From Gemmatimonadota bacterium (GTDB lineage Bacteria > Gemmatimonadota > Gemmatimonadetes > Palauibacterales > KS3-K002), in NCBI GenBank assembly GCA_016209945.1, contig JACQVD010000083.1, positions 1 through 45,811 on the forward strand: a DNA stretch of 45,811 bases, in the 5' to 3' direction. The number at the start of each line of letters is the position of its first letter. Within the stretch, counting starts at the first letter, position 1. The notes under the pieces were generated by a model. The model saw nothing but the letters and a program-made list of their open reading frames with translations, searched no databases and was not told where the DNA came from. Shown here piece after piece: positions 20,176 to 45,811 of this stretch. Both the position numbers and the translations under genes were made by a program.

Positions 20176-22437
20176 GTGAGTCTGCGGGTTCTGCGGCGAT
20201 GGGCCCCGCGGTGGGCCGTCGGAGCCGCGGCCGTGTGCGCCGCGGGGCCGACGATGGCGTCGTCCGCCCTTGCCCAGGAGGAGGAGTCCGTGGTCGCCCG
20301 GGTGGAGATCACGGGGAACTCGGCCTTCAAGAGCGAGGAGATCCGACGCGCGATCGCCACCGAGCCGAGCCGCTGCAAGTCCCTGCTCGCTGCTCCGCTC
20401 TGCGCGCTCGGGTTTGACGCCTTCCGCGACCAGCGGGCCTTCGATCCCGACGAAGTCCAGCTCGATGTCGCGCGGATCAAGCTCTTCTACTGGCGGCGCG
20501 GCTACCGCGAGGCTCAGGTGGATGCGCAGGTTCGCCGGCGCGATCACGATGCGGGGGTCACCTTCGAGATTCGGGAAGGCGAGCCGGTGCGCGTCCGTGG
20601 CTTCGGCATCGCCGGGCTCGGCGGGATCGTGCGGGACACGGCGGGGCTGCGCCGCCGGCTTTCGCTGCGGGTCGGCGAGCCGTTCAGCGTGGTCGCCGTC
20701 GAAGCGAGCCGGAACCAGATCGAGCAGTTGCTCCGGAACCGGGGCTACGCCCACGCACGGGTGCTCCTGGACGCGCTCATCCCCCGGGAGGATCCACGCT
20801 CCGCAGACGTGATGTTCCAAGTCGAGCCCGGGCCCCTGAGCCGCATCGGACAGATTCGCGTGGTGGGCGGCGAGGAGGTGGAGCCCCGCGTCGTGCGGCG
20901 GCTCCTCACGTTCCGGCAGGGCGAGCTTTACCGCGAGAACGAGATCTACCAGAGCCAGCGCCGCCTGTACGCCGTCGAGCTTTTCCAGTACGCCGACGTG
21001 GTTCCGCAGCTGGAGCGGAAAGACTCGATCGTGGACGTGACCGTCCGCGTCAGCGAGGCGCGGGTGCGCGCGGTGCGGGAAGGCGTCGGTGTCAGCACGA
21101 GCGACTGCGTCCAGGTGGAGGCGGCCTGGGCCCACAGGAACTTCCTGGGTGGCGCGCGTCGCCTGGAGGTCAGTTCGGGACTCTCGAACCTCCTGACGCC
21201 GTCCCTCGCCGGGCGGTTCCCCTGTAGCCAGGCGGGCGACACGCTCAATCGTTCGAGCCCGTTCAACAAGATGAACTGGATCGCGCGGGTCGGGTTCCAA
21301 GAGCCGTGGTTCTTCTCGTCCCGGAACTCGCTACGCCTGGGGGTGTTCGCTCAGCGGCAGAGTCTCCCCCTCATCTACGCCCGGGTGACCTACGGCGGGG
21401 ACGTGGCACTCGAGCGGCAGATCGGATCGCGCACGCCGCTCGTGCTGGCGTACCGGACGGAGCGCGACTCCCTGGACGCAGGGAGCGCGAGCGTCTTTTT
21501 CTGCGCCAACTTCGGGTTCTGCCTTCCGCAGGATCTGCGGGAGCTCGCGCAGCCGAGATGGCTCTCCTGGATCTCGATCGGGATCACCCGCGACCGCACC
21601 GACGCGATCTTCAATCCCACCCGCGGGTACGTCGCGCGTGTGGAGGTGGAGCACGCCTCGCGGTTCACCCACTCGGACTACGCGTACTCGCGCGCCTGGG
21701 CCGACGTGAGCGCGTTCAAGTCGGTGGGCGGCAGTGTGCTGGCGTTCCGTGCGCGGCCGGGTTGGGTCGGGCCGATCGGCCGCGGGATCGAGTTCGACGG
21801 CCTGGAGGCCCCGGCTCCCGGTCCCGACGTTGTGCATCCGTTGAAGCGGTTCTACGCCGGCGGCGCGAACACGGTGCGGGGCTTCGGGCAGAACCTCTTG
21901 GGCCCCCTGGCGTTGCTCCTCCCGCAGTTGGACACGCTGGAACTCGGCTGCTCGCGCCAGACGATCGATACGGTCGCCGGGGTCTGGCGGGCGTGTGACG
22001 CGGGCCCGCTTCCCGCCGAGGCCTTCCAGCTCCGGCCCGTGGGGGGGATCGTGTCCCTCGTCGCGAACCTGGAGTTCCGCTTCCCGCTCTTTGGCCAGAA
22101 CTGGTCGGGCGCTGCCTTCGTGGACATCGGAGCCGTCTGGCGGGACGAGGAGGAGTTCGAGGCCGCGCTCCGCAGAGGGCTTTTACGCGACCTCGTCTGG
22201 ACCCCGGGATTCGGGATTCGGTATCGGAGCCCCGTCGGCCCCCTGCGGATGGACTTGGGGTACAACACGACGGGATCCCGAACGTTTCCCGTCGTGACGC
22301 AGGTGGATCTGCCCGCCGGCGCGCAGGTCGTGCAGTTGGAGCAGCTCTACCGATACGACCCCTTCAGCGACCCGAGCGCGTTCCGGGAGTTCCTGAACCG
22401 CTTGCAGATCCACTTCAGCCTCGGGCAGGCGTTCTGA
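20176..22437 (+). CDS. Omp85-superfamily outer membrane protein (BamA/TamA-like; POTRA repeats plus 16-strand barrel)
   Basis: There is a signal peptide ending ALAQEE. POTRA-like repeats follow (V..V.I.GN..F...EI......). The C-terminal barrel carries FYAGG.NTVRGF and ends in a terminal aromatic residue (..GQAF). The gene lies immediately upstream of the tamB-like gene. Confidence 0.85.
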   Translation: MSLRVLRRWAPRWAVGAAAVCAAGPTMASSALAQEEESVVARVEITGNSAFKSEEIRRAIATEPSRCKSLLAAPLCALGFDAFRDQRAFDPDEVQLDVARIKLFYWRRGYREAQVDAQVRRRDHDAGVTFEIREGEPVRVRGFGIAGLGGIVRDTAGLRRRLSLRVGEPFSVVAVEASRNQIEQLLRNRGYAHARVLLDALIPREDPRSADVMFQVEPGPLSRIGQIRVVGGEEVEPRVVRRLLTFRQGELYRENEIYQSQRRLYAVELFQYADVVPQLERKDSIVDVTVRVSEARVRAVREGVGVSTSDCVQVEAAWAHRNFLGGARRLEVSSGLSNLLTPSLAGRFPCSQAGDTLNRSSPFNKMNWIARVGFQEPWFFSSRNSLRLGVFAQRQSLPLIYARVTYGGDVALERQIGSRTPLVLAYRTERDSLDAGSASVFFCANFGFCLPQDLRELAQPRWLSWISIGITRDRTDAIFNPTRGYVARVEVEHASRFTHSDYAYSRAWADVSAFKSVGGSVLAFRARPGWVGPIGRGIEFDGLEAPAPGPDVVHPLKRFYAGGANTVRGFGQNLLGPLALLLPQLDTLELGCSRQTIDTVAGVWRACDAGPLPAEAFQLRPVGGIVSLVANLEFRFPLFGQNWSGAAFVDIGAVWRDEEEFEAALRRGLLRDLVWTPGFGIRYRSPVGPLRMDLGYNTTGSRTFPVVTQVDLPAGAQVVQLEQLYRYDPFSDPSAFREFLNRLQIHFSLGQAF

Positions 22438-22439
22438 CG

Positions 22440-25400
22440 ATGGGCTGGACGAAGCGTCTCGTCGGCATCCCTCTTGCGCTGGTGGCCGCGCTCGCAGCGC
22501 TGGCGAGTCTCGCCGTCTTTCTGCTCATCGGGACGTCGTGGGGACGCGACCGGATCCGCGACTTCGTAACCGCCAGAGTCCTGGCGCGACTGGCGGGGGA
22601 CGTGCGCTTCGCCGCCATCAGCGGCGGCGGCCTCTTCCGCGGGATCGAACTGGCGGACGTGACGATTCTGGATCCGGACAGCGGCCTCGTGCTACGCGCG
22701 GACACCGTTCGACTCGCCTACCACTGGCGCGACTTCCTGCGGGGGGATGTCGTCTTCGAACGCGCGCAGCTCGTTCGGCCGGTCATCGTCCTGGAGGAGG
22801 GCCGGGATGGGAGCTGGAACGTCGTGCGTGCGTTCGGCACGGGCTCCGCCGCGGCACGCCCGGCCAGCGCGGACATCCGAAAGCGTATCGAGATGCGCAA
22901 CGTGGAGTTGCGTGATGCGACGTTCACCCTGCGTTTCCCGCTGGACGGTGAGACCGGCTTCTGGCGGACGGAGACGGGGCCCGAGGGGCGCTGGCGCGTT
23001 CTCCGGGTCGTCGGATTCGACGCGACCCTACCGCTGCTGCGGCTTTCCTCTCGGGAACCGGGTCGGCCGATCCTAGTTCGCGTCTCCGGCCTCGCGGGTG
23101 ACCTCCAGCTTCAGGGCGATCCCGTGGCGGTTCTGGATGCGCACTTGGATCTGGAGATCGACGCCGACACGATTCGACTCGACATCGCCCGACTCCGTCT
23201 CCCCGGCTCCGAGGTGGTGGGCCGCGGCCGCATCCTCGCGACCGAGTCCGGCCCACGCTACGACTTCGATGTCAAAGGACAGCCCGCAGCCTTCGCGGAC
23301 GTGCGCTGGCTCATCCCGTGGCTGCCGCGGGAGGGGGGTGGCACGTTCGATCTTCACATGGCCACCGCGCCCGAGGGACTCGCCTTCACGTTTCGCGAGA
23401 TCGACGCCCGTGTCGGCGCGTCGCGCGTCACGGGCCGGCTGGGCCTCGTCTTGCCCGACCGGGGCGAGATCATGTATCGGGGCATGGACCTGCGCCTCGA
23501 TCCTCTGGAAACGCGCTGGATCGAGGCGATGACGGGCGACAGCGTGTTCTTCGACGGGCAACTGCGCGGTCGCTTCAGCGGTGACGGCCCCTTGAGCCAG
23601 ATGAAGATCGAGGCCGATCTCGCGCTGGAGCCCGTGAACGCGCCTGCCCCCTCCCACGTGCGTGCGTCCGGAATCCTCGCCTGGGACGGGAGCTTCGGCG
23701 GGAATCCGCTGCGCACGGCCCTCATGGGCGTGGAGGTGGATCTTGTGGAGGCGCTGCTGGGGAGCGACCTGCCGCTTCGCGGGCGGCTGACCGGGACGTT
23801 GAGCTTCACGGGCACCCTGAAGACCGGGCTCCGGCTGCGCGGGGAGCTGGTGCACTCCGACGCGCCGCTGCCGCCGTCACGGTTCCGGGGGGGTGGTGAG
23901 GTGATCGGGATCGAGAAGCCCCGGGTGGACATGGCGTTCGATGCGGATCCGCTCTCGCTCACGGCGATGGCCGCGTACTACACGAAGCTGCCGTTCCGGG
24001 GCGACGTCCGTGGCCTGGTGCGGCTCCGCGGGACCCTTGACGATCTGGATGTGGACGCCGGGGTGGAGACGCGGCGTGGCCGGCTCGGCCTGCGCGGCCG
24101 CTTCGACCTGAGCGGCGAGCCCAAGCGGTACAACGCCGACCTTGAGGGCGACGATGTTCAGGTCGCAGCCCCCCGGGTCGCGTCGCCCCCTTCCGAGCTC
24201 GACTTCCGGGCACACGTGGAGGGCGCCGGGCTCGAGCCCGAGGAGCTGGAACTCAGGGGCTGGGTAGAGGTGAGGGCCTCGGAGTTCGCGGGCGCGCGGA
24301 TCGACGGGGGGTTCGCGCGCCTTGCCGCGCACGACGGGGTTCTCCTCGTGGATTCCGCGGCGATCGTTTCGGAGGTTGGCGCGCTGCGGCTGGCCGGGAG
24401 CTTCGGATTGCGGGGCGACCGCCGGGGGACGCTCACCTTCGATCTTCGGGCCGATACCCTCGCAACGTGGAATCGCTGGCTCCTGCCGCCCGATAGCCTG
24501 CGGCCGCCGGAGACGCCCGGCGCGGACGGCGGCCTGGCCCTCCTCGGGGCCGAGCCGCTCGCACCCGGTGAGACGGGACCTATCCGGGGCTCGCTGGTGG
24601 CATCCGGCTCGATCAGCGGGAATCTCCAAGTGCTGTCGCTGGGGGCGAGCGGCCGTCTCGAAGATGTCCGCTGGAGGGACCACGCCGCCGCAGACCTCGC
24701 GTTCACGCTCTCCGCGGAGGGGCCCCGAGACTCGCTGCGGATCGAAGGGCACTTCGAGGGCCGGGAGGTAAAGGCGTTCGGGTTCGAGCTCACAGGCGTT
24801 CGGATCGACGCCGACGTCGCGGGGGATACGGCGCGCGTAGAGGGTGAGCTGCGCAAGGGGCCGGAGGCCCGGGTGGCTGCGGACCTGGAGATCGTCCGGG
24901 TGCCTCAGGGCACCGAGCTCACGCTGCGGGCGTTTCAGGCGATGTTGCGCGGCGGCGCGCTGGGGCTCGCGGCCCCTGTGCGGGCGGTGCGGCGCGGCCG
25001 GACCTTGTCGGTCGAGCCGCTGCGGATCACAGGCCCGGCGGGCTCCGTCGTGGCGCAGGTCAGAATCCCCGACTCGGGGGTTGCGGTGGGGAACGTGGAG
25101 GTGCGGGGCTTCGACCTCGCGGACCTGGTGGTGATGCTTCCCACGTGGGGGGACGCCCGGGGCGCCCTTCAGATGGATCTTCATCTCGCGGGATCCAACA
25201 CGGCCCCTCTGGTGAACGTGGAGGTGCAGATCGTGGACGGTGCCTTGCGCGGCGTCCCGTTCTCGCGCCTCTCCGGGCGCGGGCGTTACGAGGCCGGTGC
25301 CTTGGCACTCGACATCTTCGCATGGCGCGGTGCCTCGAGGCTGCTGGAGATCTCGGGGAGCGTCCCCGCGACGCTCGACCTCGGCGCGCTCGCGCTCCGG

Positions 25401-26840
25401 GGCACGGAGCGGCCGGTCGAGGTCCGGGTGCGCGCCGACAGTTTCCCCCTGCGCTTCGCGCTTGCCAAGTTCGAGCAGTTCCGCGATGTGGAGGGCGTTC
25501 TGCGCGGCGAAGTCGTCGTCCGCGGGACGGTCAAGAGCCCCGACCTCGACGGCCACCTGGAGCTCAGGGGCGGCGCGTCTCGGCTCCACCGCGTCGGGGC
25601 CTCGTACTCCGGGATCCAAGGCAGGGTGCAGTTCCGGGGAACGACGGCTGAGCTGGACGGCGTGGAGTTCCGGGGGCCGGAGCGGGGGCGGGGCCGTGCC
25701 GAAGGATCCCTGCGCCTGAAGCCGCTCAACGACCCGGAGTTCGACCTGCGGTTCACGGCCAGCGATCTGCTGGCGTACAACACGCGGCTCGCCCGCGTCG
25801 TGGTGACCGGGGTCATCGACCTCCGAGGCTCCTACACGCATCCGATCGTCACAGGTGACCTCACGGTCGAGAGCGGTGCGCTGTTCGTGCGCGAGGTCGA
25901 GCGGCAGCGACAGATCATTGACCTCGCGGACCCGGCCTTCTTCAACGTGGTGGATACGACGCTGGCGGAGCACCGCCGGCTGCTCCCGCTCGTTCGGGAT
26001 CCCTTCTTCCAGAACATGAACGCAGAGCTCACCCTGCGTCTGACTCGGGACAGCTGGCTGCGCGCGCCGGACCGGTCGATCGAGATCGCCGGGGATCTCC
26101 GGCTGCGCTGGGACCGGGCGAGACAGGATCTCCGGATGTCGGGGACCCTGGAGGCGCTGCGTGGAGAGTACAGGTACGTGGGGAAGCGATTCACCGTGGA
26201 GGGCGGGACGGTCGAGTTTCCGGGGACGCCGGGGGTCAACCCGGATCTCAACCTCGTCGCCCAGCACAAGGTCGAGACCCCCCGGCGGCCGCTGACGATC
26301 CGGATCTTCGTCACCGGGACGCTGGAGAGCCCGCGGATCCGACTCACGAGCGACGCGCAACCGCCCATCGATGAGGCGGGCCTCCTGAGCTACCTCCTGT
26401 TCGGCCGGCCGTTCTCGGAGCTCACCCGGGGGCCCGGTGTCGTGTCGGCGGTGGGCGAGAGCGTCTTCGGGTTTGCGGCAACCCAACTCGAATCGTTCGT
26501 GGTCGGCGAGACCGGGATTGTGGACTACCTCGACATCACGGCCGCGCGCGGCAGGGGTGACCCGACGTACCGCACCGAGGAAAACGGGTTCAACCCGTGG
26601 ACGCGCGTCGAGGCCGGCTGGTACCTGCTCCCTGACGTGTTCGTGACGGTCGGTCAGCGGTTCGGCGGCCCCCAGCGATCGGAGGTCCCGGACGTCCGGC
26701 TGGACTGGCTCATCACGCGAAACCTCTCCTTCCAATTCGTGGCGGAGGAACGCGGCGCGCGCACCGGGGCGATCGTTCTGGAGAGCGCGGCCCCGGAGCG
26801 CACGTTCGGGCTCTTCTTCTTCCACGAGTGGAGCTATTAG
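22440..26840 (+). CDS. tamB: Translocation and assembly module protein TamB-like (1466 aa)
   Basis: N-terminal membrane anchor (LVGIPLALVAALAALASLAVFLLIG), then a very long beta-rich repetitive body. The C-terminal DUF490-like region reads PDLNLVAQHKV..TGTLESPRIRLTSDAQPP.DEAGLLSYLLFGRP. It starts 2 nt after the Omp85 gene. Confidence 0.85.
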   Translation: MGWTKRLVGIPLALVAALAALASLAVFLLIGTSWGRDRIRDFVTARVLARLAGDVRFAAISGGGLFRGIELADVTILDPDSGLVLRADTVRLAYHWRDFLRGDVVFERAQLVRPVIVLEEGRDGSWNVVRAFGTGSAAARPASADIRKRIEMRNVELRDATFTLRFPLDGETGFWRTETGPEGRWRVLRVVGFDATLPLLRLSSREPGRPILVRVSGLAGDLQLQGDPVAVLDAHLDLEIDADTIRLDIARLRLPGSEVVGRGRILATESGPRYDFDVKGQPAAFADVRWLIPWLPREGGGTFDLHMATAPEGLAFTFREIDARVGASRVTGRLGLVLPDRGEIMYRGMDLRLDPLETRWIEAMTGDSVFFDGQLRGRFSGDGPLSQMKIEADLALEPVNAPAPSHVRASGILAWDGSFGGNPLRTALMGVEVDLVEALLGSDLPLRGRLTGTLSFTGTLKTGLRLRGELVHSDAPLPPSRFRGGGEVIGIEKPRVDMAFDADPLSLTAMAAYYTKLPFRGDVRGLVRLRGTLDDLDVDAGVETRRGRLGLRGRFDLSGEPKRYNADLEGDDVQVAAPRVASPPSELDFRAHVEGAGLEPEELELRGWVEVRASEFAGARIDGGFARLAAHDGVLLVDSAAIVSEVGALRLAGSFGLRGDRRGTLTFDLRADTLATWNRWLLPPDSLRPPETPGADGGLALLGAEPLAPGETGPIRGSLVASGSISGNLQVLSLGASGRLEDVRWRDHAAADLAFTLSAEGPRDSLRIEGHFEGREVKAFGFELTGVRIDADVAGDTARVEGELRKGPEARVAADLEIVRVPQGTELTLRAFQAMLRGGALGLAAPVRAVRRGRTLSVEPLRITGPAGSVVAQVRIPDSGVAVGNVEVRGFDLADLVVMLPTWGDARGALQMDLHLAGSNTAPLVNVEVQIVDGALRGVPFSRLSGRGRYEAGALALDIFAWRGASRLLEISGSVPATLDLGALALRGTERPVEVRVRADSFPLRFALAKFEQFRDVEGVLRGEVVVRGTVKSPDLDGHLELRGGASRLHRVGASYSGIQGRVQFRGTTAELDGVEFRGPERGRGRAEGSLRLKPLNDPEFDLRFTASDLLAYNTRLARVVVTGVIDLRGSYTHPIVTGDLTVESGALFVREVERQRQIIDLADPAFFNVVDTTLAEHRRLLPLVRDPFFQNMNAELTLRLTRDSWLRAPDRSIEIAGDLRLRWDRARQDLRMSGTLEALRGEYRYVGKRFTVEGGTVEFPGTPGVNPDLNLVAQHKVETPRRPLTIRIFVTGTLESPRIRLTSDAQPPIDEAGLLSYLLFGRPFSELTRGPGVVSAVGESVFGFAATQLESFVVGETGIVDYLDITAARGRGDPTYRTEENGFNPWTRVEAGWYLLPDVFVTVGQRFGGPQRSEVPDVRLDWLITRNLSFQFVAEERGARTGAIVLESAAPERTFGLFFFHEWSY

Positions 26841-32725: not shown

Positions 32726-32742
32726 TTGAAATTGAATCTCAA
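32726..32742. promoter_or_regulatory. 17-bp near-perfect palindrome TTGAAATT-G-AATCTCAA (Fur-box-like operator candidate) upstream of the cytochrome c/FTR1 gene
   Basis: Of the 8 symmetric position pairs, 7 are self-complementary (all but 5/13) about a central G. The site is an AT-rich island in GC-rich DNA. It starts 7 nt after a -10-like TATCTT (32713-32718). It shares TTGA.A..N..TCTCAA with the palindrome at 40628-40644. Confidence 0.5.
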
Positions 32743-32754
32743 CGGCTTGGCAAC

Positions 32755-34605
32755 TTGGAAACGTCTGTCTCCAAGCCATTGAAGCGCGTCTTGTGGGCCT
32801 GCGAGGTCCTGGTTCTGACGCTGGGCTCGCTGGCCGCCGCTCAACCGCCGGGCGCCGGGACCGCGGGCGCACCCTCCGACCCCGGTGAGCTGGCCGCGCG
32901 TCTCAGTCTGGCGGCCGAGGAGTACGCGCTGGGCGTGACGGCCGACGGGCGGCTCGTGAACCGGGCGGAGTATGACGAGGCGAGGCTGTTTCTGGACGCT
33001 GTCTCGCGGGATGTCGCGGCCTTCAGGCGGACATCGCCAGAGGCCGCGTGGTACGATCTCGCGCAGGCGGTTGACTCCGTCCGGGCCGTGGTCGAGAGGG
33101 TCGGCACACCGGACGAGGTCCGGCAGCGGGTCGGCGAAGCCCTTGCCATCCTAGCGGGTCGCCTCGCTGCGAAGCTCGTCGAGTGGCCGCTGCGCGCGCC
33201 GTCCCTGTCCTCCGGCCGCGCGCTCTATCGGGCACACTGCGCGGCCTGTCACGGTGTGGAGGGCCGCGGCGACGGTTCCCTGGCCGCAGGGATGGACCCG
33301 CCCCCGACCGACTTCACCGACCCCGACATTCTCTCGGCGACGCCGGCTCGCCTCTTTCACGTCGTCTCCCATGGGATCCCCGGCACGGCGATGAGCGCGT
33401 GGCGTGAGCGGCTCGGTCCGACCCAGCGCTGGGATCTCGCGGCGTATGTTCGGAGCCTGGCGGGCGACTCGGTCTCGGTGACGGGCTTCGTGGCGAGTCG
33501 TGGGGTGGACTGGGGAGGTGTCCGAGGGCTTCTCCAGAACGCCGTCCGTCGCGGTCTCGAGGGCGACTCCGAGGGCGCGGCGCAGGAAGCGCTGGCCGCC
33601 TACCTGGAGTTTGAGAAGGTGGAGAACGTCGTCCGGGCGCGCCGACCGGGGCTGGCGGCGAGCCTGGAGCGCGATTTCCTCGCGCTGCGCGAGGCCGTCC
33701 GAGGGCGGCCCGCTGAGGGAGCGGCGCTCGCGCGCCGGCTGGAGATGGATCTCGGGCGCGCGCAGGACGCTCTCGCCCGCGCGCCCGCGAGCCTGCGCGG
33801 AGTGGCCGAGTCGCTGACGATCATCGTCCGGGAGGGGTTCGAGGCGATCCTGATCGTCGGCGCGCTTCTCGCCTTGCTCGTGAAGTCGGGCCACAGGGCG
33901 CGGCGCCGGTCGGTTCTGTGGGGCGTGTTCGCCGCCGTCTGCGCGAGCCTCCTCACCGCCGTCGCCGTCGAAGGGATCTTCCGATGGAGCCCCGGTTCAC
34001 GGGAAGCGCTCGAAGGGATCACGATGCTTCTGGCGACGGTCGTCCTCTTCAGCGTGAGCTACTGGCTCGTCTCGAAGGTGGAGCACGCGGCGTGGGATCG
34101 TTACATCCGTGGGAAGGTGCAGTCCGCGCTGGCGAAGGGGAGCGATCTCGCCCTCGCGGGCGTCGCGTTCCTGGCGGTCTACCGCGAAGGGTTCGAGACC
34201 GTGCTCTTCTACAGGGCGCTCCTCGCTGCGGCGCCCTCTCCGGGTGCGGTGGTCCTCGGCTTCGCGGTCGGCTGCGTCATCCTGGCGGCGATCTTCGCGC
34301 TCTTCTATGGTCTGGGCGTACGGATCCCGCTGCGTCCCTTCTTTGCGGGGACAGGCGCCGTGCTGTACTACTTGGCGTTCGTCTTCGCGGGAAGGGGAAT
34401 CCACGAGCTCCAGGAGGCGGGGTGGCTTGCGACGACGGTGGTGCATGGGCTCCCATCGCTGGACTGGCTGGGGTTGTACCCGACCGTCGAGGGTCTTGGG
34501 GTTCAAGCGCTTCTCATTCTCGCCCTCGCCGCTGCGGTGCTGTGGGTCTTCATCATGAAGCCTCTGCGGCTCCGCGCCACGAGCCCCGCACACGTGTCGG
34601 AGTAG
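32755..34605 (+). CDS. Cytochrome c / FTR1-family iron permease fusion protein
   Basis: There is a signal peptide (KRVLWACEVLVLTLGSLAAAQ). The CAACH heme c motif has a downstream GIPGTAMSAW Met ligand region. A multi-TM FTR1 domain follows with two REGFE motifs (VREGFEAILIV, YREGFETVLFY). Start is TTG 32755 or in-frame TTG 32779. Confidence 0.85.
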   Translation: METSVSKPLKRVLWACEVLVLTLGSLAAAQPPGAGTAGAPSDPGELAARLSLAAEEYALGVTADGRLVNRAEYDEARLFLDAVSRDVAAFRRTSPEAAWYDLAQAVDSVRAVVERVGTPDEVRQRVGEALAILAGRLAAKLVEWPLRAPSLSSGRALYRAHCAACHGVEGRGDGSLAAGMDPPPTDFTDPDILSATPARLFHVVSHGIPGTAMSAWRERLGPTQRWDLAAYVRSLAGDSVSVTGFVASRGVDWGGVRGLLQNAVRRGLEGDSEGAAQEALAAYLEFEKVENVVRARRPGLAASLERDFLALREAVRGRPAEGAALARRLEMDLGRAQDALARAPASLRGVAESLTIIVREGFEAILIVGALLALLVKSGHRARRRSVLWGVFAAVCASLLTAVAVEGIFRWSPGSREALEGITMLLATVVLFSVSYWLVSKVEHAAWDRYIRGKVQSALAKGSDLALAGVAFLAVYREGFETVLFYRALLAAAPSPGAVVLGFAVGCVILAAIFALFYGLGVRIPLRPFFAGTGAVLYYLAFVFAGRGIHELQEAGWLATTVVHGLPSLDWLGLYPTVEGLGVQALLILALAAAVLWVFIMKPLRLRATSPAHVSE

Positions 34606-38614: not shown

Positions 38615-39667
38615 ATGATCATCGTACTTCAGAAGAACGCGACGCCCGAACAGATCGCCCAGATCATCGAGCGCGTGGAGGCCCACGGGCTCCGCGCCCA
38701 CCTGTCGCGGGGGACCGAGCGGACGATCATCGGCTGCATCGGCGATGAGGAGCTCCTCCGCACCGTGCCCTTGAAAGTCCTGCCGGGCGTCGAGGATGTG
38801 ATCCCGGTCCTCAAGCCGTACAAACTCGCGGCTCGCGCGTTCAACGAGTCGGGATCTGTGGTTCGCGCGGGTTCGGCGGCCTTCGGGAGCCGGGAATTCG
38901 TGGTCGCCGCGGGCCCATGCTCGGTGGAGAGCCGTGAGGGCTTCCTGGAAGTGGCGCGCGCCGTGGCGGCCGCGGGAGCGGCGTGCCTGCGGGGCGGCGC
39001 CTTCAAGGCCCGGACCTCGCCGTACTCCTTCCGGGGGCTGGGCGTGGAGGGCCTGAAGATCCTGGCGGAGGCGCGCGAGGCGACGCGACTTCCCGTCGTC
39101 ACCGAGGTGATGGATACGCGCCACGTCGAGCGCGTCGCCGAGTACGCCGACATGCTCCAGGTCGGAGCCCGCAACATGCAGAACTTCGATCTCCTGCGCG
39201 AAGTGGGCGCGTCGCTCAGGCCCGCGCTCCTCAAGCGGGGCATGTCGGCTAGCGTGACCGACCTCCTCCTCGCCGCCGAGTACATCCTGAGCGCGGGAAA
39301 CAGGGACGTCGTGTTGTGCGAGCGTGGGATCCGCACGTTCGAGACCGCGACGCGGAACACCCTCGACATCGCCGCGGTACCGGTGTTGAAATCCGAGACG
39401 CACCTGCCCGTCATCGTCGATCCGAGCCACGCGGCGGGCCGGCGCGACATCGTGCCGGCCCTCGCGGGCGCTGCCCTCGCCGCTGGCGCCGACGGGATCA
39501 TGGTCGAGGTGCATCCGCGCCCGGAGGAGGCGCTCTCCGATGGGGAACAGTCGCTCACGTTATCAGGCTTCGAAGGCTTGATGGATCGGCTGCGGGGTCT
39601 CGGGGAGGCCGTGGGACGCGGCGTGCGGGCTCCCCGAGCGGTTACGGCGCTTCCATTTTCCTCTTGA
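38615..39667 (+). CDS. aroF: 3-deoxy-7-phosphoheptulonate (DAHP) synthase, type I-beta with an N-terminal ferredoxin-like regulatory domain
   Basis: The N-terminal ~70 aa form an ACT/ferredoxin-like domain (MIIVLQKNATPEQIAQIIERVEAHGL.AHLS.G.ERT.IG.IGD). The catalytic barrel shows AGPCSVES; LRGGAFK.RTSPY.F.GLG; GARNMQNF.LL; L.KRG; ERGIRTFE...RNTLD; DPSH..G. Confidence 0.9.
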   Translation: MIIVLQKNATPEQIAQIIERVEAHGLRAHLSRGTERTIIGCIGDEELLRTVPLKVLPGVEDVIPVLKPYKLAARAFNESGSVVRAGSAAFGSREFVVAAGPCSVESREGFLEVARAVAAAGAACLRGGAFKARTSPYSFRGLGVEGLKILAEAREATRLPVVTEVMDTRHVERVAEYADMLQVGARNMQNFDLLREVGASLRPALLKRGMSASVTDLLLAAEYILSAGNRDVVLCERGIRTFETATRNTLDIAAVPVLKSETHLPVIVDPSHAAGRRDIVPALAGAALAAGADGIMVEVHPRPEEALSDGEQSLTLSGFEGLMDRLRGLGEAVGRGVRAPRAVTALPFSS

Positions 39668-40472
39668 TCGTCGTGGTCTCCTCCTCGGAATCCACGGGCG
39701 CCCCGGGCTTCACGCGCACGCTCTTCGCGGGGATCCCCACGTTCACGTGGTAGGGCCGCACATCCCGGGTGGCCACGGCGCACGCCCCCACCATGGCATC
39801 GCGCCCGACGCACACGCCAGCCAGGACGGTGGCGTGATACGTGATGCGGACGTCGTCCTCCAGAATCGTCTTCGCGCAGGTCACATCGCGCTGATCCACG
39901 ATGGAGTGCGTGTGGGAGTAGATGTTGGCGTAGTCGGCGATGGAGACTCGATCGCCCAGCACGATCCCGCCGCGGTCGTCCAGCAGCACGTACCGGTGCA
40001 CGACCACGTCGTCGCCCACTTCCATGTTGTACCCGAACGAGAACTCGACGAAGTGAAAGCACTTAAAGTTGCGGCCACAGCGCTTGAAGATGTACGGGGC
40101 GAGGAGGCGCCGGAATCCCACCCCCAGGTGCACGTTCTGGCCGAGGGGCGTGCGATCGAACAACTGCCACATCCATAGGAGCGGCTTCACCCGCGCAAAC
40201 TTCTCCGGATCGACTTCGGCGTAGTACTCGGGCTCCAGCGTGACGTTTCGAGGGTCGAGCTGGGCGAGCGCCACCTGCGCGCCGAGCGGGAGATCCTCGG
40301 GCCGCCGTTCCGCCATTTGGGGAAAGTAGAGATCGCGTAACACGCGTACGCAGAGCGCGTTGCGATCGCAGTCGGGTCGGCGGAGGTCGGCTTCGATGTC
40401 GGCGAGCCAGCGCTCGTAGAGCGCTGTCGGCTGACGGGATGGCCGGGTCACGCGCAGGGGAAGGAACGCCAT
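39642..40472 (-). CDS. Left-handed beta-helix (hexapeptide repeat) acyltransferase
   Basis: The C-terminal half has hexapeptide-repeat periodicity (VVVHRYVLLDDRGGIVLGDRVSIADYANIYSHTH..DDVRITYHATVLAGVCVGRDAMVGACAVAT..VNVGIPAK). Its 3' end overlaps aroF convergently by 26 nt. Confidence 0.75.
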   Translation of the reverse strand: MAFLPLRVTRPSRQPTALYERWLADIEADLRRPDCDRNALCVRVLRDLYFPQMAERRPEDLPLGAQVALAQLDPRNVTLEPEYYAEVDPEKFARVKPLLWMWQLFDRTPLGQNVHLGVGFRRLLAPYIFKRCGRNFKCFHFVEFSFGYNMEVGDDVVVHRYVLLDDRGGIVLGDRVSIADYANIYSHTHSIVDQRDVTCAKTILEDDVRITYHATVLAGVCVGRDAMVGACAVATRDVRPYHVNVGIPAKSVRVKPGAPVDSEEETTTIKRKMEAP

Positions 40473-40590: not shown

Positions 40591-40618
40591 TTGACGCGGT
40601 TCGCACCGCCGGTATAAT
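40591..40618 (+). promoter_or_regulatory. Near-consensus sigma70-type promoter: TTGACG, 16 nt, TATAAT
   Basis: TTGACG at 40591-40596 and a perfect TATAAT at 40613-40618 with a 16-nt spacer. It is directly upstream of the ApbE operon, and such a match is conspicuous in roughly 70% GC DNA. Confidence 0.6.
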
Positions 40619-40627
40619 GGGGCGCCG

Positions 40628-40661
40628 TTGAGAATCGTTCTCAATCTCAATAATTGTTATC
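40628..40661. promoter_or_regulatory. AT-rich operator region: palindrome TTGAGAA-TCG-TTCTCAA plus an adjacent Fur-hexamer-like CTCAATAATTGTTATC
   Basis: 7-3-7 inverted repeat at 40628-40644. The inner 15 bp, TGAGAATCGTTCTCA, resemble the 7-1-7 Fur-family box TGAnAATnATTnTCA. A second element follows at 40646-40661 (ATAA-TTG-TTAT). The region starts 9 nt after the -10 hexamer, where a repressor would block initiation. Confidence 0.55.
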
Positions 40662-40693
40662 GCTTCACCCGGAGGAGGAAGCCAATCCCAAGG

Positions 40694-41848
40694 TTGCAAG
40701 CGGCGCTGTTGGGCGCCCTGCTTCTACTCGCCCTGCCGATCCGGCCCGGGGAACCAGAGCGAACCGCTGGCCTCGGGGCGTCTCCCGAGCTTGTCCCCGA
40801 CCCCTCGCAGGCGCCATCAGGATCGGTGTGGGTCGAGCGAGAGGCATACCTCATGGGGACGACCCTCCGGGCGCGGGTCGCCGCCCCCGACAGGACGAGG
40901 GCGATCGCGGCGATCGAGCGTGTCTTTGCGGAGGTTCGCCGCCTGGAGCAGGTGCTGAGCACGTGGCGGGACGACAGCGAACTGGGCCGCCTGAATCGCG
41001 CCCCGGTCGGGCGGGCCTTTAACCCATCGCCCGAAGTCTTCTCTCTCCTTTTGGAAGTGCAGTGCTGGTGGCGCGCCACGGGCGGCGCGTTCGACCCGGC
41101 GATCGGGCCTCTCGTTGAGGCGTGGGATCTACGGGGAGCGGGGCGGTACCCGTCCGAGTCCGTTCTCGGCTCGGCCCTGGCCGCCAGCGGACTGGACCGC
41201 TTCTCCTTCGAGGAGGAGGCACGAGCGATTCGGCGGCTCGATGCGCGCGCCTGGATCGACGACGGCGCCTTCGGGAAGGGGGCCGCGCTGCGGGCGGCGC
41301 GCCGGATTCTCTTGCAGGGGAGCGTTCGCTCGGCGCTGCTCGATTTCGGCGGGCAACTCCTGGCACTGGGTGACGCGGCCGGGGATGGCGGCTGGGTCGT
41401 GGCCGTCGCGCACCCGTCGCGCCGTGACGAGCCCGCGGCCGAGGTTCGGCTTCGCGACCGGTCGGCGGCGACCACCTCGTCTTCCGAGCGCTTTGTGGAA
41501 GTGAGCGGGGAGCGGTTCGGTCACGTTCTCGATCCCCGCACGGGCCGGCCCGTGCGTCCATGGGGGAGCGTGACGGTCGTCGCCCCGGATCCCCTCGTCG
41601 CCGATATCCTCTCGACGGCCCTCTTCGTCCTGGGGCCGGTGGAGGCCCTGCGGTGGGCGGAGGCGCGCGAGGACGTCGCGGTGCTGGTCCTGGAGAACGC
41701 ATCCGGCGCGCCGGCCGCCTCGTCGAACCGGGCGATGGCGGGTTTGCTCGTGGATCTCGGGCCGGCCCGGGAAGTGACGGGAGGCGACAGCCGTATCCGA
41801 GAGGCCGAGAAGACTGCTCTGAGACAGGTGGAGCGGGCTGGAGACTGA
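40694..41848 (+). CDS. apbE: FAD:protein FMN transferase (ApbE family)
   Basis: LMGT...........A.AAI..VF.EV.RLE.VLS.W...SEL.RLN; GGAFDP.IGPLV.AW; FGKG.A...A. The start is uncertain. The track start TTG 40628 lies inside the operator, and in-frame TTG 40694 follows GGAGGAGGA (40671-40679). Confidence 0.85.
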   Translation: MQAALLGALLLLALPIRPGEPERTAGLGASPELVPDPSQAPSGSVWVEREAYLMGTTLRARVAAPDRTRAIAAIERVFAEVRRLEQVLSTWRDDSELGRLNRAPVGRAFNPSPEVFSLLLEVQCWWRATGGAFDPAIGPLVEAWDLRGAGRYPSESVLGSALAASGLDRFSFEEEARAIRRLDARAWIDDGAFGKGAALRAARRILLQGSVRSALLDFGGQLLALGDAAGDGGWVVAVAHPSRRDEPAAEVRLRDRSAATTSSSERFVEVSGERFGHVLDPRTGRPVRPWGSVTVVAPDPLVADILSTALFVLGPVEALRWAEAREDVAVLVLENASGAPAASSNRAMAGLLVDLGPAREVTGGDSRIREAEKTALRQVERAGD

Positions 41849-41866
41849 ACGCCAGAAGGGGGAAGT

Positions 41867-43201
41867 GTGATCCGCGCAGTGTCGTCACGGGTTCTCGTGT
41901 GTGCCATCGCGATCAGCTCCCTGGTCATGGTGCGGCAGGCCGCGGCGCAGGAGGGGGCCGCTCAGGACACGTCGCAGATCGCGGAGCTCCGGCGTCAAAT
42001 CGAGGCGATCACGCGCGAACTCGAGCAGCTGAGGCTGGGTCAGGAGGTCGTGGTCCAGGCCGACACGAGCGTGTACGGGCTGGGGCCCGCCGCGTCGAAG
42101 GTCTACCGCGCCCGGCAGGGCGTCTCCCTCGCCGGATATGGGGAGATGCTGTACGAGAACTTCTCCGAGGATCGGGAGGACGGCTCCCGCTCCGGCAAGA
42201 CGGACCAGCTCGATTTCCTGCGTGGGGTCGTCTACGTGGGATACAAGTTCAACGAGAGGTTCCTCTTCAACTCGGAGATCGAGTTCGAGCACGGCGCGAC
42301 GGACCAGGAGGGCTCCGTCTCCCTGGAGTTCGCGTACGTGGACTACATCCTTTCGCCCGGTCTGGGATTCCGGGCGGGGCTGCTCCTCCCACCGATGGGT
42401 CTCATCAACGAACAGCACGAGCCTCCGATCTTTCTCGGGACGAGCCGGCCCGAGACGGAGCTCCGCATCATCCCGAGCACGTGGAGGGAGAACGGGATCG
42501 GGATCTTCGGGCAGGCGGCCGGGTTCGCGTATCGGGCGTATCTGATCAACGGTTTCGATGGCGTCGGCGGCGGCTCCTCGGGCGCGAGCGGATTCAGCGC
42601 TGCGGGTCTCAGGGGCGGGCGCCAGAAGGGTTCGAGGGCGATGGCGGAAGACCTGGCGTTCGTCGGCCGAGTGGAGTACGTGGGGCCCCTCGGCTTCCTC
42701 ATCGGAACCTCGGTCTACGTCGGGAACTCGGGGCAGGGTCGGAGCGCGCCCACGGACCCCGAAGACGAGATCGGTGCCCGCGCCCTCATCTGGGAAGGCC
42801 ACGCCCAGTACAAGGCTCGCGGCCTCGACGTGCGGGGCCTCGTGGCCGTAGCCGATGTGGATGACGTGGCGGAGTTGAACGCGGTTAAGCGTCTGGAGGG
42901 AAGCGCGTCCATCGGCGAGCGCCTTGTCGGAGGTTACGTGCAGGCGGGGTACGACGTCCTTCACCGCCTGCGCACCGGGCAGCAGCTCATCCCGTACGTC
43001 CGCTACGAGAGGTTGAACACGCAGGACGAGGTCCCGGAGGGGTTCGAGCCCAATCCGGCCAACGACCGCAGGATCGTGTCGATCGGGGCCGCGTGGAAGC
43101 CGATCCCGAACATCGCCCTCAAGGCGGACTACCAGATCCACGGCAACGAGGCGGACACGGGCGTGGACCAGTTCAACGTGAACGTGAGCTACCTGTTCTA
43201 G
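41867..43201 (+). CDS. Porin-like outer membrane beta-barrel protein with an N-terminal coiled-coil segment
   Basis: There is a signal peptide ending QAAAQE and a heptad-like IAELRRQIEAITRELEQLRL. Alternating amphipathic beta-strand patterns follow. The C-terminal strand ends ..FNVNVSYLF with a terminal aromatic residue. A strong SD (GAAGGGGGAAG) precedes GTG 41867. Confidence 0.7.
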   Translation: MIRAVSSRVLVCAIAISSLVMVRQAAAQEGAAQDTSQIAELRRQIEAITRELEQLRLGQEVVVQADTSVYGLGPAASKVYRARQGVSLAGYGEMLYENFSEDREDGSRSGKTDQLDFLRGVVYVGYKFNERFLFNSEIEFEHGATDQEGSVSLEFAYVDYILSPGLGFRAGLLLPPMGLINEQHEPPIFLGTSRPETELRIIPSTWRENGIGIFGQAAGFAYRAYLINGFDGVGGGSSGASGFSAAGLRGGRQKGSRAMAEDLAFVGRVEYVGPLGFLIGTSVYVGNSGQGRSAPTDPEDEIGARALIWEGHAQYKARGLDVRGLVAVADVDDVAELNAVKRLEGSASIGERLVGGYVQAGYDVLHRLRTGQQLIPYVRYERLNTQDEVPEGFEPNPANDRRIVSIGAAWKPIPNIALKADYQIHGNEADTGVDQFNVNVSYLF

Positions 43202-43202
43202 C

Positions 43203-43808
43203 GTGCCGGGTCGCCCGCTTCGGTTCTGGGGGCTCGGGGGGCTCGGGCCCGTCCTGTTGTGGGCGTGTCTGGCCCGCCCCTTGCTTGGGCAGGTTTTCCT
43301 CACGCAAGAGGAGGCTCTCCGGCTCGCCTTTCCGGAGCCGGCGACGATCGAACGGAGGACGGCATATCTGGGGGAAGCGGATCTCAAGGCGGCGCGGAGG
43401 CTCGCGGGGAGCGATGTGGAGATCCACCAGAGGGTCGTTACCTACTACGTCGGGAGGCTCGGTGATCGGCCCCTCGGGGTCGCCTACTTCGATGCCCACC
43501 GCGTCCGCACGCTCCCCGAGGTCGTCATGATCGTGGTGTCGAGGGAGGGGCACATCGACCGGATCGAGATCCTCAAGTTCTCCGAGCCGCCGGAGTACCG
43601 CGCGCCGCACAGCTGGCTCGGGCAGCTGGAGGGGAAGGCTCTTACGGAGGATCTCGCGCTCAAGAAAAGGATCGTGAACATGACCGGCGCCACGCTCACG
43701 TCGCGCGCCATCACCCGGGGGGCGAGGCGGGTCCTCGCGCTGCACCAGGTCATTCGCCCCCTGGGGCTCTGGGGCGCGGAGAGGGGAGAGCCCGATGGCG
43801 CCTCTTGA
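43203..43808 (+). CDS. Periplasmic FMN-binding domain protein (ApbE substrate-type, NqrC/RnfG/NosR-like FMN_bind)
   Basis: A signal peptide is present. The sequence then reads FLTQEEALRLAFPEP....R. The flavinylation motif context is IVNMTGATLTSRAITRG, matching (S/T)GA(T/S) followed by LTS. It starts 1 nt after the OMP gene stop. Confidence 0.75.
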   Translation: MPGRPLRFWGLGGLGPVLLWACLARPLLGQVFLTQEEALRLAFPEPATIERRTAYLGEADLKAARRLAGSDVEIHQRVVTYYVGRLGDRPLGVAYFDAHRVRTLPEVVMIVVSREGHIDRIEILKFSEPPEYRAPHSWLGQLEGKALTEDLALKKRIVNMTGATLTSRAITRGARRVLALHQVIRPLGLWGAERGEPDGAS

Positions 43809-44331
43809 GCGGTGGTCGGTCTGGATCGCCTCGGCGCTCACCTTCCTCACGGGCGTCGGGTACATGTGGACGAAGTACTTCGTCGAGTCCGGCGATCCGT
43901 GGGCCGCTGTGAACCATCCGCTGGAGCCGTGGTTCCTGCGGGCGCACGTGGTCACGGCGCCCCTCCTCGTGTTCGTCCTGGGCGTCATCGCCTTGCGGCA
44001 CGTGTGGCGGCACTTCCGAAGCGGGACGCCCTCGGGGCGGAGAAGCGGCGTGTTGGCGGCGCTGGCGGTCGTGCCGATGGTGCTGACGGGCTACGTCATT
44101 CAGGTCGTGACGCACCAGGGGTGGCTGCGCGCGCTCGCGATCTCGCACATCGGCGTCGGGTTCCTCTACGCGCTCGGTCTCGTGCTGCACGAGTTCGCGC
44201 TCCGAAAGGCGTCCAAGCCGGCCGAGGACGGCGTGCCCCGGCGGGAGGAGCCGCGGCGCGAGCCGGTTTGGGCGGCCGGCGCCGGAGGGGGGCGCCCGCC
44301 GCGCTCTCCCGACGCGGCCGGAGTTTCCTAG
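43795..44331 (+). CDS. Four-TM His-rich membrane protein (cytochrome-b-like; family not recognised)
   Basis: Four predicted TM helices. His residues sit within or at the ends of TM2 (AHVV...LRHVWRH) and TM4 (SHIGVGFLYALGLVLHEF, an H-x13-H spacing). It overlaps the FMN-binding gene by 14 nt. Confidence 0.55.
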   Translation: MAPLERWSVWIASALTFLTGVGYMWTKYFVESGDPWAAVNHPLEPWFLRAHVVTAPLLVFVLGVIALRHVWRHFRSGTPSGRRSGVLAALAVVPMVLTGYVIQVVTHQGWLRALAISHIGVGFLYALGLVLHEFALRKASKPAEDGVPRREEPRREPVWAAGAGGGRPPRSPDAAGVS

Positions 44332-44337
44332 AAGGCG

Positions 44338-45811
<1,474 letters not shown>

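Follow-up and report, generated by a model that had tools for sequence, protein, structure and literature searches.

Extracytosolic proteins flavinylated by ApbE are widespread, and the systems that they form often lie beside iron transporters and are Fur-repressed (Meheust 2021 eLife, PMC8238504). Five classes of membrane component have been described for such systems, namely NapH-like, MsrQ-like, PepSY-like, DsbD, and NQR/RNF-like proteins (PMC8238504). DUF4405 and FezC were added later, with four central His residues as the signature of these flavinylation-associated membrane cytochromes (Huang 2024 mSystems, PMC11334425). Here, we analyze a four-gene operon at positions 40,591–44,331 of a 45,811-nucleotide (nt) stretch of DNA (the window; contig JACQVD010000083.1 of assembly GCA_016209945.1) from a member of the Gemmatimonadota. 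The operon encodes an ApbE-type flavin transferase (gene 1), an outer-membrane porin (gene 2), a flavin mononucleotide (FMN)-binding protein of the FMN_bind family (gene 3), and a small His-rich protein with four transmembrane (TM) helices (gene 4). The closest protein relatives of the window are found in Gemmatimonadota, including metagenome-assembled genomes (MAGs) of Longimicrobiaceae and Gemmatimonadales. With a probability of roughly 0.6, we take the operon to be a Fur-repressed periplasmic ferric reductase that is induced on iron starvation and serves iron uptake.

Like the PepSY-like/FoxB, MsrQ-like, DUF4405, and FezC systems, the locus combines ApbE, an extracytosolic protein with a [S/T]GA[S/T] motif, and a small four-His membrane protein, and it shares their genomic and regulatory ties to iron uptake and Fur. 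The membrane component is different, however. Gene 4 has four TM helices where DUF4405 and MsrQ have six, and its ligand pairs are confined to two helices, with spacings of 17 and 13 residues. PepSY clusters typically carry a DUF2271 substrate domain, whereas the operon has FMN_bind, and a dedicated, highly conserved porin is an integral part of the operon. Gene 3 belongs to the same FMN_bind fold family as RnfG and NqrC and aligns with them at the flavinylated Thr motif, but it stands alone with a nonhomologous membrane partner and has no Rnf or Nqr subunits nearby. The main texts of PMC8238504 and PMC11334425 mention neither porins nor Gemmatimonadota. A full-text literature search found no paper on this four-gene combination, in line with the view of an initial annotation of the sequence that a quartet with its own outer-membrane channel and a shared operator looks uncharacterized. 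The system works like known flavinylation-based electron transfer; what is new is the family of the membrane protein and the obligatory porin.

The four genes follow one another closely on the plus strand. Gene 1 (apbE; 40,628–41,848) encodes a predicted extracytosolic flavin adenine dinucleotide (FAD):protein FMN transferase, gene 2 (41,867–43,201) a protein modeled as a specialized 16-strand outer-membrane porin, gene 3 (43,203–43,808) a periplasmic FMN_bind protein with a signal peptide or N-terminal anchor, and gene 4 (43,795–44,331) an inner-membrane protein that is a putative minimal diheme cytochrome b. In the map of open reading frames (ORFs), genes 1 and 2 are 18 nt apart, genes 2 and 3 are 1 nt apart, and genes 3 and 4 overlap by 14 nt, exactly as the initial annotation had it, and third-position GC is high in all four ORFs, as in real genes (the window has a GC content of ∼70%). 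Upstream lies a sigma-70–type promoter (40,591–40,618, plus strand) with a −35 element TTGACG at 40,591–40,596, a 16-nt spacer, and a −10 element TATAAT at 40,613–40,618. It agrees with the consensus at 11 of 12 positions, when 0.2 such sites are expected between 40,000 and 45,811; of the two promoter-like sites in that interval, it is the sole one on the plus strand, so its earlier description as near consensus holds. Orthologous loci have a TTGAC-type −35 and a −10-like element in the same placement relative to the operator box described below. As had been noted, genes for Nqr, Rnf, Nos, and fumarate reductase are missing from the operon flanks; Nqr, Rnf, and Nos subunits (RnfA–E, NqrA–F) were likewise absent from the window flanks and from 80 related loci.

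The flavinylation pair was readily recognized. Gene 1 matched PF02424 at E = 7e-63 (213 bits against a Pfam cut-off of 25.6), which confirms it as an ApbE-type flavin transferase, and it matched solved FAD:protein FMN transferases (1vrm, 4xdt, 2o18, and others) at E ∼1e-29. Its product has a hydrophobic N-terminal segment, LQAALLGALLLLALP, and no lipobox Cys. Because there are two candidate TTG codons, the start of gene 1 is uncertain: one lies at 40,628, inside the operator, and the other follows in frame at 40,694, after GGAGGAGGA at 40,671–40,679. Gene 3 matched PF04205 (FMN_bind) with 31 bits against a Pfam cut-off of 22, and its best solved relatives are RnfG subunits (E = 6e-4), with NMTGATLTS aligned to the flavinylated motif of RnfG; its first description as a protein with an FMN_bind-type motif was thus sound. 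The acceptor motif xGA[T/S]LT was present in 79 of 79 gene-3 orthologues, so that the TGAT acceptor residue is conserved throughout. Gene 3 has one flavin site, and its sequence predicts a covalent FMN on T164 of NMTGATLTS, attached by ApbE.

Gene 4 was modeled by AlphaFold2 (AF2) as four helices, with a predicted local distance difference test (pLDDT) score of 77.5. TM2 carries H51-x17-H69 and, in addition, H73, and TM4 carries H118-x13-H132. The initial annotation had rightly described four helices with His pairs in TM2 and TM4, but the H-x13-H spacing that it gave to both applies to TM4 only. We assessed conservation in 150 representatives, each from a different 50%-identity cluster, and found H51, H69, H118, and H132 to be invariant in 139–150 of the 150; in the family, H41 was kept in 95% and H73 in 37%. 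Both pairs sit on one face of their own helix, 7–10 residues from the helix ends, which is the pattern expected for two bis-His hemes stacked across the membrane. Gene 4 would accordingly bind two hemes b between TM2 and TM4. By the positive-inside rule, a positive loop between TM2 and TM3, RHVWRHFRSGTPSGRRSG, and an Arg-rich tail point to an N-in/C-in topology, and a conserved loop, DPWAVVNHPLQPW, would be expected at the interface of a complex of gene 3 and gene 4.

Gene linkage and natural fusions place gene 4 in the same pathway. In loci that hold genes 2 to 4 (the trio), gene 4 always directly follows gene 3. In Acidobacteriota and Eisenbacteria, proteins of 445–545 amino acids combine the 4-TM domain with an additional TM helix and then a complete ApbE (for example, in loci L086, 6998–8446, and L088, 7001–8470; proteins P0316, P0325, P0358, and P0361), and the gene order in these loci is porin, FMN_bind, 4-TM::ApbE. 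The fusions tie gene 4 to flavinylation. Their fifth helix, moreover, puts ApbE in the periplasm and so supports the N-in/C-in topology independently.

The family membership of gene 4 was less clear. Gene 4 had no Pfam match, and no family threshold was reached in the 40 family members scanned. Subthreshold matches to cytochrome b families nevertheless recurred in 6 of 10 distant members: Ni_hydr_CYTB in one of them (E = 7.8e-6, 26.2 bits against a cut-off of 30.1), DUF4405 in 3 of 10 (E 0.014–1.4), and Cytochrom_B561 in 2 of 10. A match of gene 4 to DUF4405 or other cytochrome-b–like families, for which a search had first been suggested, was therefore not borne out at threshold, and on these weak signals we treat it as a cytochrome-b–like protein of an undescribed family. 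PepSY_TM, MsrQ, DUF4405, CybB, and CopD were each tried as its family and rejected, there being no Pfam threshold match, no PDB sequence match, and no significant Foldseek match. In architecture, gene 4 resembles the Ni_hydr_CYTB/b561 proteins (HyaC, FdnI, CybB), which are four-helix bundles with bis-His hemes near each membrane face and H-x13-H on the last helix. It differs in that its second His pair lies wholly on TM2 with an x17 spacing, whereas that of FdnI is split over TM1 and TM2, and in having a flavoprotein rather than a hydrogenase or formate dehydrogenase as its partner.

The porin was assigned largely by its fold. The AF2 model of gene 2 (pLDDT 79) has 16 strands and an N-terminal helix at residues 30–58, and Foldseek matched it to the general trimeric porins OmpU/OmpF/OmpC at E ∼1e-13. 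Together with a signal peptide, a periplasmic coiled coil at about residues 30–58, and a C-terminal Phe that is invariant in orthologues, this agrees with the β-barrel with a coiled-coil neck and terminal Phe that had been read from the sequence. Helical segments at residues 179–200 lie between strands 5 and 6 of the model, consistent with an internal L3 loop. Profile searches gave a mixed result for the porin family: the window protein matched no Pfam family, including PF07396 (Porin_O_P), and the gene-2 profile had no match among PDB sequences, but 5 of 24 orthologues had weak Porin_O_P matches (best E = 3.7e-4), and a homologue from Dokdonella passed PF07396 with 35.4 bits against 20.9. At 60–75% identity across the phylum, gene 2 is unusually well conserved for an outer-membrane protein, with the invariant motifs FNSEIEFEH, NExHEPP, RPETE, STWRENG, and GLRGGRQKG. 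Its L3 and L4 loops are strongly conserved and contain invariant acidic, His, and Arg residues, which argues for a substrate-specific channel.

Two other identities for gene 2 were examined and dropped. DUF3570 proteins, which we take to be β-barrels, offered one of them. These flavinylated outer-membrane-type proteins of DsbD-linked clusters (PMC8238504) resemble gene 2 in their length of ∼420–440 amino acids and in being encoded beside apbE, and the window protein contains SGAS. The operon, however, lacks DsbD, thioredoxin, and DUF4266 partners, and PF12094 gave no match. Orthologues do not conserve the SGAS: the position reads SSxAxGF, and in some of them it is deleted. An MtrB-like sheath was rejected because the barrel has only 16 strands.

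We next consider how the gene set is conserved. A search with the gene-4 profile found relatives in 556 species-level genomes, and the best 80 loci were used for synteny; all of these are labeled Gemmatimonadota bar one, which is probably a misbinned MAG. Of the 69 loci that extended far enough upstream, 68 had the order porin, FMN_bind, 4-TM. ApbE lay directly upstream of the trio in 53 of 62 loci and directly downstream in 2 more, and was thus adjacent in 55 of 62, so that the quartet behaves as a conserved unit. The interpretation in the initial annotation depended on conservation of the quartet, of the acceptor Thr, and of the membrane His residues, and on each of these points, which can be checked in silico, the outcome favored that interpretation.

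The link to iron comes from the operator. A Fur-family 7-1-7 operator, TTGAGAATCGTTCTCAA (40,628–40,644, no strand), is a perfect palindrome (TTGAGAA-N3-TTCTCAA; 7-1-7 reading TGAGAAT-C-GTTCTCA), for which 0.01 chance matches are expected. It lies within a 46-nt stretch of 43% GC, as expected from its earlier description as an AT-rich palindromic operator. The box starts 9 nt after the −10 element (about +8 to +25 from the −10) and so covers the initiation region, where a bound repressor would block initiation. Of 63 related loci, 51 have the box ahead of the leading gene of the operon when ≤3 mismatches in 14 specified positions are allowed; a match of this quality occurs in ∼3.5% of 450-nt windows drawn at random from these loci. 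The conserved box always follows closely on a TTGAC −35 and a −10-like element. A candidate second box overlapping the AT-rich tail (40,645–40,663) was rejected, as it scored ≤1.9 bits with the weight matrix described below. The Fur-type box itself holds a TTG, and longest-ORF starts fall inside the operator for apbE (window 40,628), for an FTR1 gene (L009, 7815), and for a TonB-dependent receptor gene (L283, 5330); N-terminal extensions that start there are probably ORF-calling artifacts.

A weight matrix built solely from sites in other genomes picked out two sites in the 45.8-kb window, 40,628 with 32.3 bits and 32,726 with 28.9 bits; the third-best site scored 5.6 bits, and the best of 200 shuffles scored 20.1. 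The second box, TTGAAATTGAATCTCAA (32,726–32,742, no strand), differs from the operon box at 5 of 17 positions and lies 12 nt upstream of the ORF for a cFTR1/EfeU-type iron permease (32,755–34,605, plus strand; 616 amino acids), as the initial annotation had proposed in pointing to a twin operator before a cytochrome c–FTR1 gene. The permease matches Pfam FTR1, Cytochrome_CBB3, and Cytochrom_C and the NCBIfam EfeU/Ftr1 subfamily, and it has the motifs CAACH and REGFE, REALE, and REGFE. When the matrix was run on 969 kb of related loci, matches were essentially confined to the operon upstream region and to the FTR1 gene beside the operon in L009. FTR1 homologues adjoin the operon in L009 and L057, and boxes precede FTR1 homologues in L009, L168, L287, L250, and L252; a collection of cFTR1 loci gathered with a single protein query comprised four loci, of which one was informative. 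Under the shared regulator, cFTR1 would probably serve as the partner for uptake across the inner membrane. The cFTR1 of Synechocystis is induced by iron starvation, according to work cited in 10.1101/2021.11.08.467730.

An exact-pattern scan with one genome per species returned at least 120 loci, ∼11 of them informative; many of the matches come from AT-rich genomes, most are presumably due to chance, and the scan is not a regulon census. Among the matches listed, other Gemmatimonadota have the box upstream of feoB (L187), TonB-dependent receptor genes (L283 and L285), and cFTR1 (L287), so that in the same lineage its position before canonical iron genes is documented in the handful of loci examined. 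The listed matches also include boxes that precede porin homologues of Planctomycetota and Deltaproteobacteria, a box at the head of a cluster with a porin homologue in a Dokdonella MAG, and, in Firmicutes, TTGAGAATwwTTCTCAA directly 5′ of FTR1-family genes of Ectobacillus (L250, 4967–7035) and Enterococcus (L252, 420–1958). In Ectobacillus, an ApbE gene stands just before the box. The operon box differs by one base per half-site from the Bacillus subtilis Fur box, TGATAAT-N-ATTATCA. The box consensus, TTGAGAATSRTTCTCAA, is likewise one base per half-site apart from the delta-proteobacterial Fur box, tTGAAAATCATTTTCAa (Rodionov 2004, PMC545781). Conservation of the box, the iron genes that it precedes, and its resemblance to published Fur boxes all favor the Fur-like operator and iron link proposed at the outset, and we read the operator as a Fur-type box marking an iron regulon, with Fur binding and a response to iron predicted from its sequence.

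The module extends beyond the Gemmatimonadota in altered form. Clusters of porin, FMN_bind, and ApbE were found in at least eight other phyla, with members in Verrucomicrobiota, Planctomycetota, Armatimonadota, Dadabacteria, Thermodesulfobacteriota and other delta lineages, Binatia, Nitrospiria, and Xanthomonadales, and most of them have this type of box; it was also seen in Acidobacteriota, Planctomycetota, Verrucomicrobiota, Dadabacteria, Binatia, and delta loci. Neighbors of the module there include FeoB (L154), ferritin (L153), and a FUR-family gene with an ATP-binding cassette (ABC) permease and ATPase (L162). In the last of these, a Nitrospiria MAG (L162, 3391–3990 and 4035–6667), the FUR-family gene lies directly 5′ of two tandem porin paralogues, which are followed by ApbE, FMN_bind, an HxH protein, and an ABC importer. 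Such HxH proteins (L160 8166–8690, L162 8401–8889, L127 7939–8448, L153 4686–5204, L135 4481–4966, and L141 6306–6917) belong to no Pfam family and are possibly an alternative membrane partner; homology with gene 4 was tested and rejected (hhalign probability 0.3%). With gene 4 replaced and the importers varying, the conserved core is porin, flavoprotein, and ApbE, and the small membrane partner and the importer are exchangeable. CCP_MauG diheme cytochrome c peroxidase-like genes also appear in two clusters. Among the matches listed, a Dokdonella MAG (L203, 2578–3909, minus strand) has, in this order, the box, such a gene, the porin, and FMN_bind, and a delta-proteobacterial locus (L141, 9937–11,748) has a weakly CCP_MauG-like gene after the porin. 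These genes suggest that a flavin module can stand in for a cytochrome module here, and vice versa.

Taken together, conservation and the distribution of the Fur-type box support the reductive iron acquisition first put forward, by way of a membrane cytochrome-b–like protein, a periplasmic flavoprotein, and a porin. In such a pathway, a Fur-family repressor would sit on the 7-1-7 box over the transcription start when iron is sufficient and silence both the operon and the cFTR1 gene 8 kb upstream. On derepression, ApbE would be exported and would attach FMN covalently to Thr164 of the FMN_bind protein. The 4-TM protein would hold one heme b at H51/H118, near the periplasm, and another at H69/H132, near the cytoplasm, and electrons would pass from the quinol pool through it to the covalent FMN of gene 3 and on to Fe(III). 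The porin would be a substrate-specific trimeric channel that lets ferric chelates or iron ions into the periplasm; the electron donor, the direction of flow, and the porin substrate are all deduced. Fe(II) would then be taken up by cFTR1 and reoxidized at its cytochrome c domain as in Fet3/Ftr1, and FeoB or an ABC importer may take this role in other lineages, to judge from coregulation and neighborhood.

Several results weigh against this reading, most of them concerning gene 4. The gene-4 profile had no match among PDB sequences, and the window protein did not match PF03929, PF16357, PF01794, or PF14358. Structure prediction of gene 4 alone gave the four helices proposed but no significant fold match: Foldseek returned nothing at E ≤ 0.001, the highest-probability match was the Escherichia coli Hyd-1 cytochrome b (6g94; probability 0.54, TM-score 0.45), and FoxB (7ABW) was absent from the best 50. 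The His residues of TM2 are 17 apart rather than the classical 13. Gene 4 also has no cytoplasmic donor domain, which makes the electron source a guess, and it is not obvious that electrons would run downhill from quinol to an FMN, whose potential is typically low. In 7 of 62 loci, there was no ApbE nearby. In most other phyla, the gene 4 slot holds the unrelated HxH protein (∼165 amino acids, four TM helices, invariant LExxHFHxF), so that the module does not everywhere require a diheme conduit. Finally, the box points to a Fur-family protein but cannot alone separate Fur from its Mur, Zur, and PerR paralogues.

These points leave room for other readings. Gene 4 could be a His-lined permease or chaperone for Fe2+ or Cu, similar to CopD, with the flavoprotein fed by an unlinked donor. 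One family member matches CopD (E = 2.7e-5) and another the related family DUF2269, the HxH protein of other phyla has too few His residues for two hemes, and flavinylated systems without a linked membrane conduit have been described (Meheust, PMC8238504). We nevertheless think a permease unlikely, as four invariant His residues paired at the two membrane faces on two helices are the hallmark of a bis-His diheme protein (PMC11334425), and the subthreshold cytochrome b matches (6 of 10 distant members) are commoner than those to permeases. Dedicated importers (cFTR1, FeoB, ABC) are, moreover, already present and vary by lineage, whereas the small membrane protein stays beside the flavoprotein, and the ApbE fusions tie it to the flavin pathway, not to transport. 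Electrons could also flow in reverse, from Fe(II) to the quinone pool, with the flavoprotein and the 4-TM protein serving as the electron sink for Fe(II) oxidation at cFTR1; FtrB/FtrD of FtrABCD or EfeO/EfeB of EfeUOB would be the parallels. In the Fet3/Ftr1 paradigm, transport by FTR1-type permeases must be coupled to oxidation of Fe(II), and cFTR1 has the same operator and adjoins the operon in the two loci named above. The direction of electrons in flavinylated systems could in principle reverse (Meheust, PMC8238504). Yet some copies of the module have FeoB or ABC importers beside them and no FTR1, and these importers need no oxidation step; cFTR1, moreover, has its own cytochrome c. Covalent FMN is also usually of low potential, so that electrons from Fe(II) or cytochrome c would have to travel uphill, and we rate reverse flow as quite unlikely.

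Other readings retain the direction of flow and change its purpose. Under the Fur paralogue PerR, Mur, or Zur, the operon might serve periplasmic redox maintenance or detoxification, acting on oxidized proteins, peroxide, Mn, or Cu. The 7-1-7 boxes of B. subtilis Fur, PerR, and Zur are indeed alike, the CCP_MauG-like genes in the L203 (Dokdonella) and L141 clusters would suit such a role, and MsrQ-type cytochromes feed periplasmic repair enzymes (PMC8238504). But neither the operon nor its vicinity encodes a reductase or repair enzyme of the MsrP kind. Within the phylum, feoB, TonB-dependent receptor genes, and cFTR1 stand behind the identical box, and the neighbors elsewhere are FeoB, Fur, ferritin, and an ABC importer; a non-iron role is, in our estimate, very unlikely. 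More improbable still is an outer-membrane conduit in which porin and flavoprotein together carry electrons to extracellular Fe(III) or minerals in dissimilatory reduction, as a flavin analogue of MtrCAB. Porin and flavoprotein are the most widely coconserved pair, the periplasmic coiled-coil extension of the porin could dock a partner, and long-distance transfer by multiflavinylated proteins has been proposed (PMC8238504). Gene 3, however, has a single flavin site, and Fur-type repression fits assimilation, not respiration. A 16-strand barrel would also be too narrow to sheathe a protein of ∼17 kDa; MtrB has 26 strands.

The surroundings of the operon consist of unrelated housekeeping genes, a divergent hexapeptide acetyltransferase-like gene upstream and guaB downstream. 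The former (39,642–40,472, minus strand) encodes a hexapeptide-repeat O-acetyltransferase-like protein closest to the GAT/MAT/WcaF/EpsC type, and it is the divergent neighbor of the operon in ∼33 of the 80 Gemmatimonadota loci. In three loci (L053 4100–4867, L060 7977–8783, and L078 1456–2223), it instead lies just 3′ of gene 4 on the same strand, so that its linkage to the operon outlives rearrangement. The spacer between gene 4 and guaB (44,331–44,471) measures 139 nt and contains TTGACA at 44,339 and a terminator-like hairpin at 44,431–44,446, followed by TTTTCGTT. The true start of guaB is ATG 44,471, and the listed ORF start at 44,408 is an overextension. Elsewhere in the window and unrelated to the operon, an Omp85/POTRA protein (753 amino acids) and the 1466-amino-acid ORF that follows it, at 20,176–26,840, resemble a TamA/TamB-type pair.

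Two described iron systems come closest to the ferric reductase reading. The hypothetical porin "psp" of Geobacter and Desulfuromonas is Porin_O_P-like, is preceded by Fur boxes, and was predicted to serve iron entry (Rodionov 2004, PMC545781). Its boxes (tTGAAAATCATTTTCAa) are nearly the same as that of the operon, and the likeness is one of porin type and box; the delta-proteobacterial homologues of gene 2 are distant (E 1e-12 to 1e-14). In contrast to the operon, psp was described as a solitary gene without ApbE, FMN_bind, or a membrane partner. Yeast Fre1 with Fet3/Ftr1 and Synechocystis ARTO with cFTR1 offer the functional parallel, in that a heme b/flavin reductase makes Fe(II) and an FTR1-family permease imports it after reoxidation. 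Compared with Fre/NOX and ARTO, the reductase here is nonhomologous, is divided between two proteins, one with four TM helices and one periplasmic and covalently flavinylated, and has its own outer-membrane channel. Tentatively, and at slightly less than even odds, we propose that the operon represents an unrecognized Fur-controlled pathway of reductive iron uptake in Gram-negative bacteria, made up of a new minimal diheme b family, a flavinylated reductase, and an iron-specific porin. Together with cFTR1, it would be a bacterial counterpart of yeast Fre/Fet3-Ftr1, and its core would span at least nine phyla with interchangeable membrane partners (four-His or HxH) and importers (cFTR1, FeoB, or ABC).

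Gemmatimonadota are abundant in soils and sediments, but their physiology is barely characterized. Besides FeoB and TonB-dependent receptors, the operon would be their main conserved response to iron starvation. If the proposed role is correct, gene 4 would represent a sixth or seventh class of transmembrane conduit for flavinylation-based extracytosolic electron transfer, and the smallest one, and gene 2 would be the first outer-membrane channel to be an obligate partner of a flavinylated system. The operator would provide a defined Fur box for a phylum without regulon data. The four-His 4-TM family (at least 900 clusters), the HxH family, and the "hypothetical porin" family (more than 6,600 clusters) would then become testable candidates for iron acquisition.

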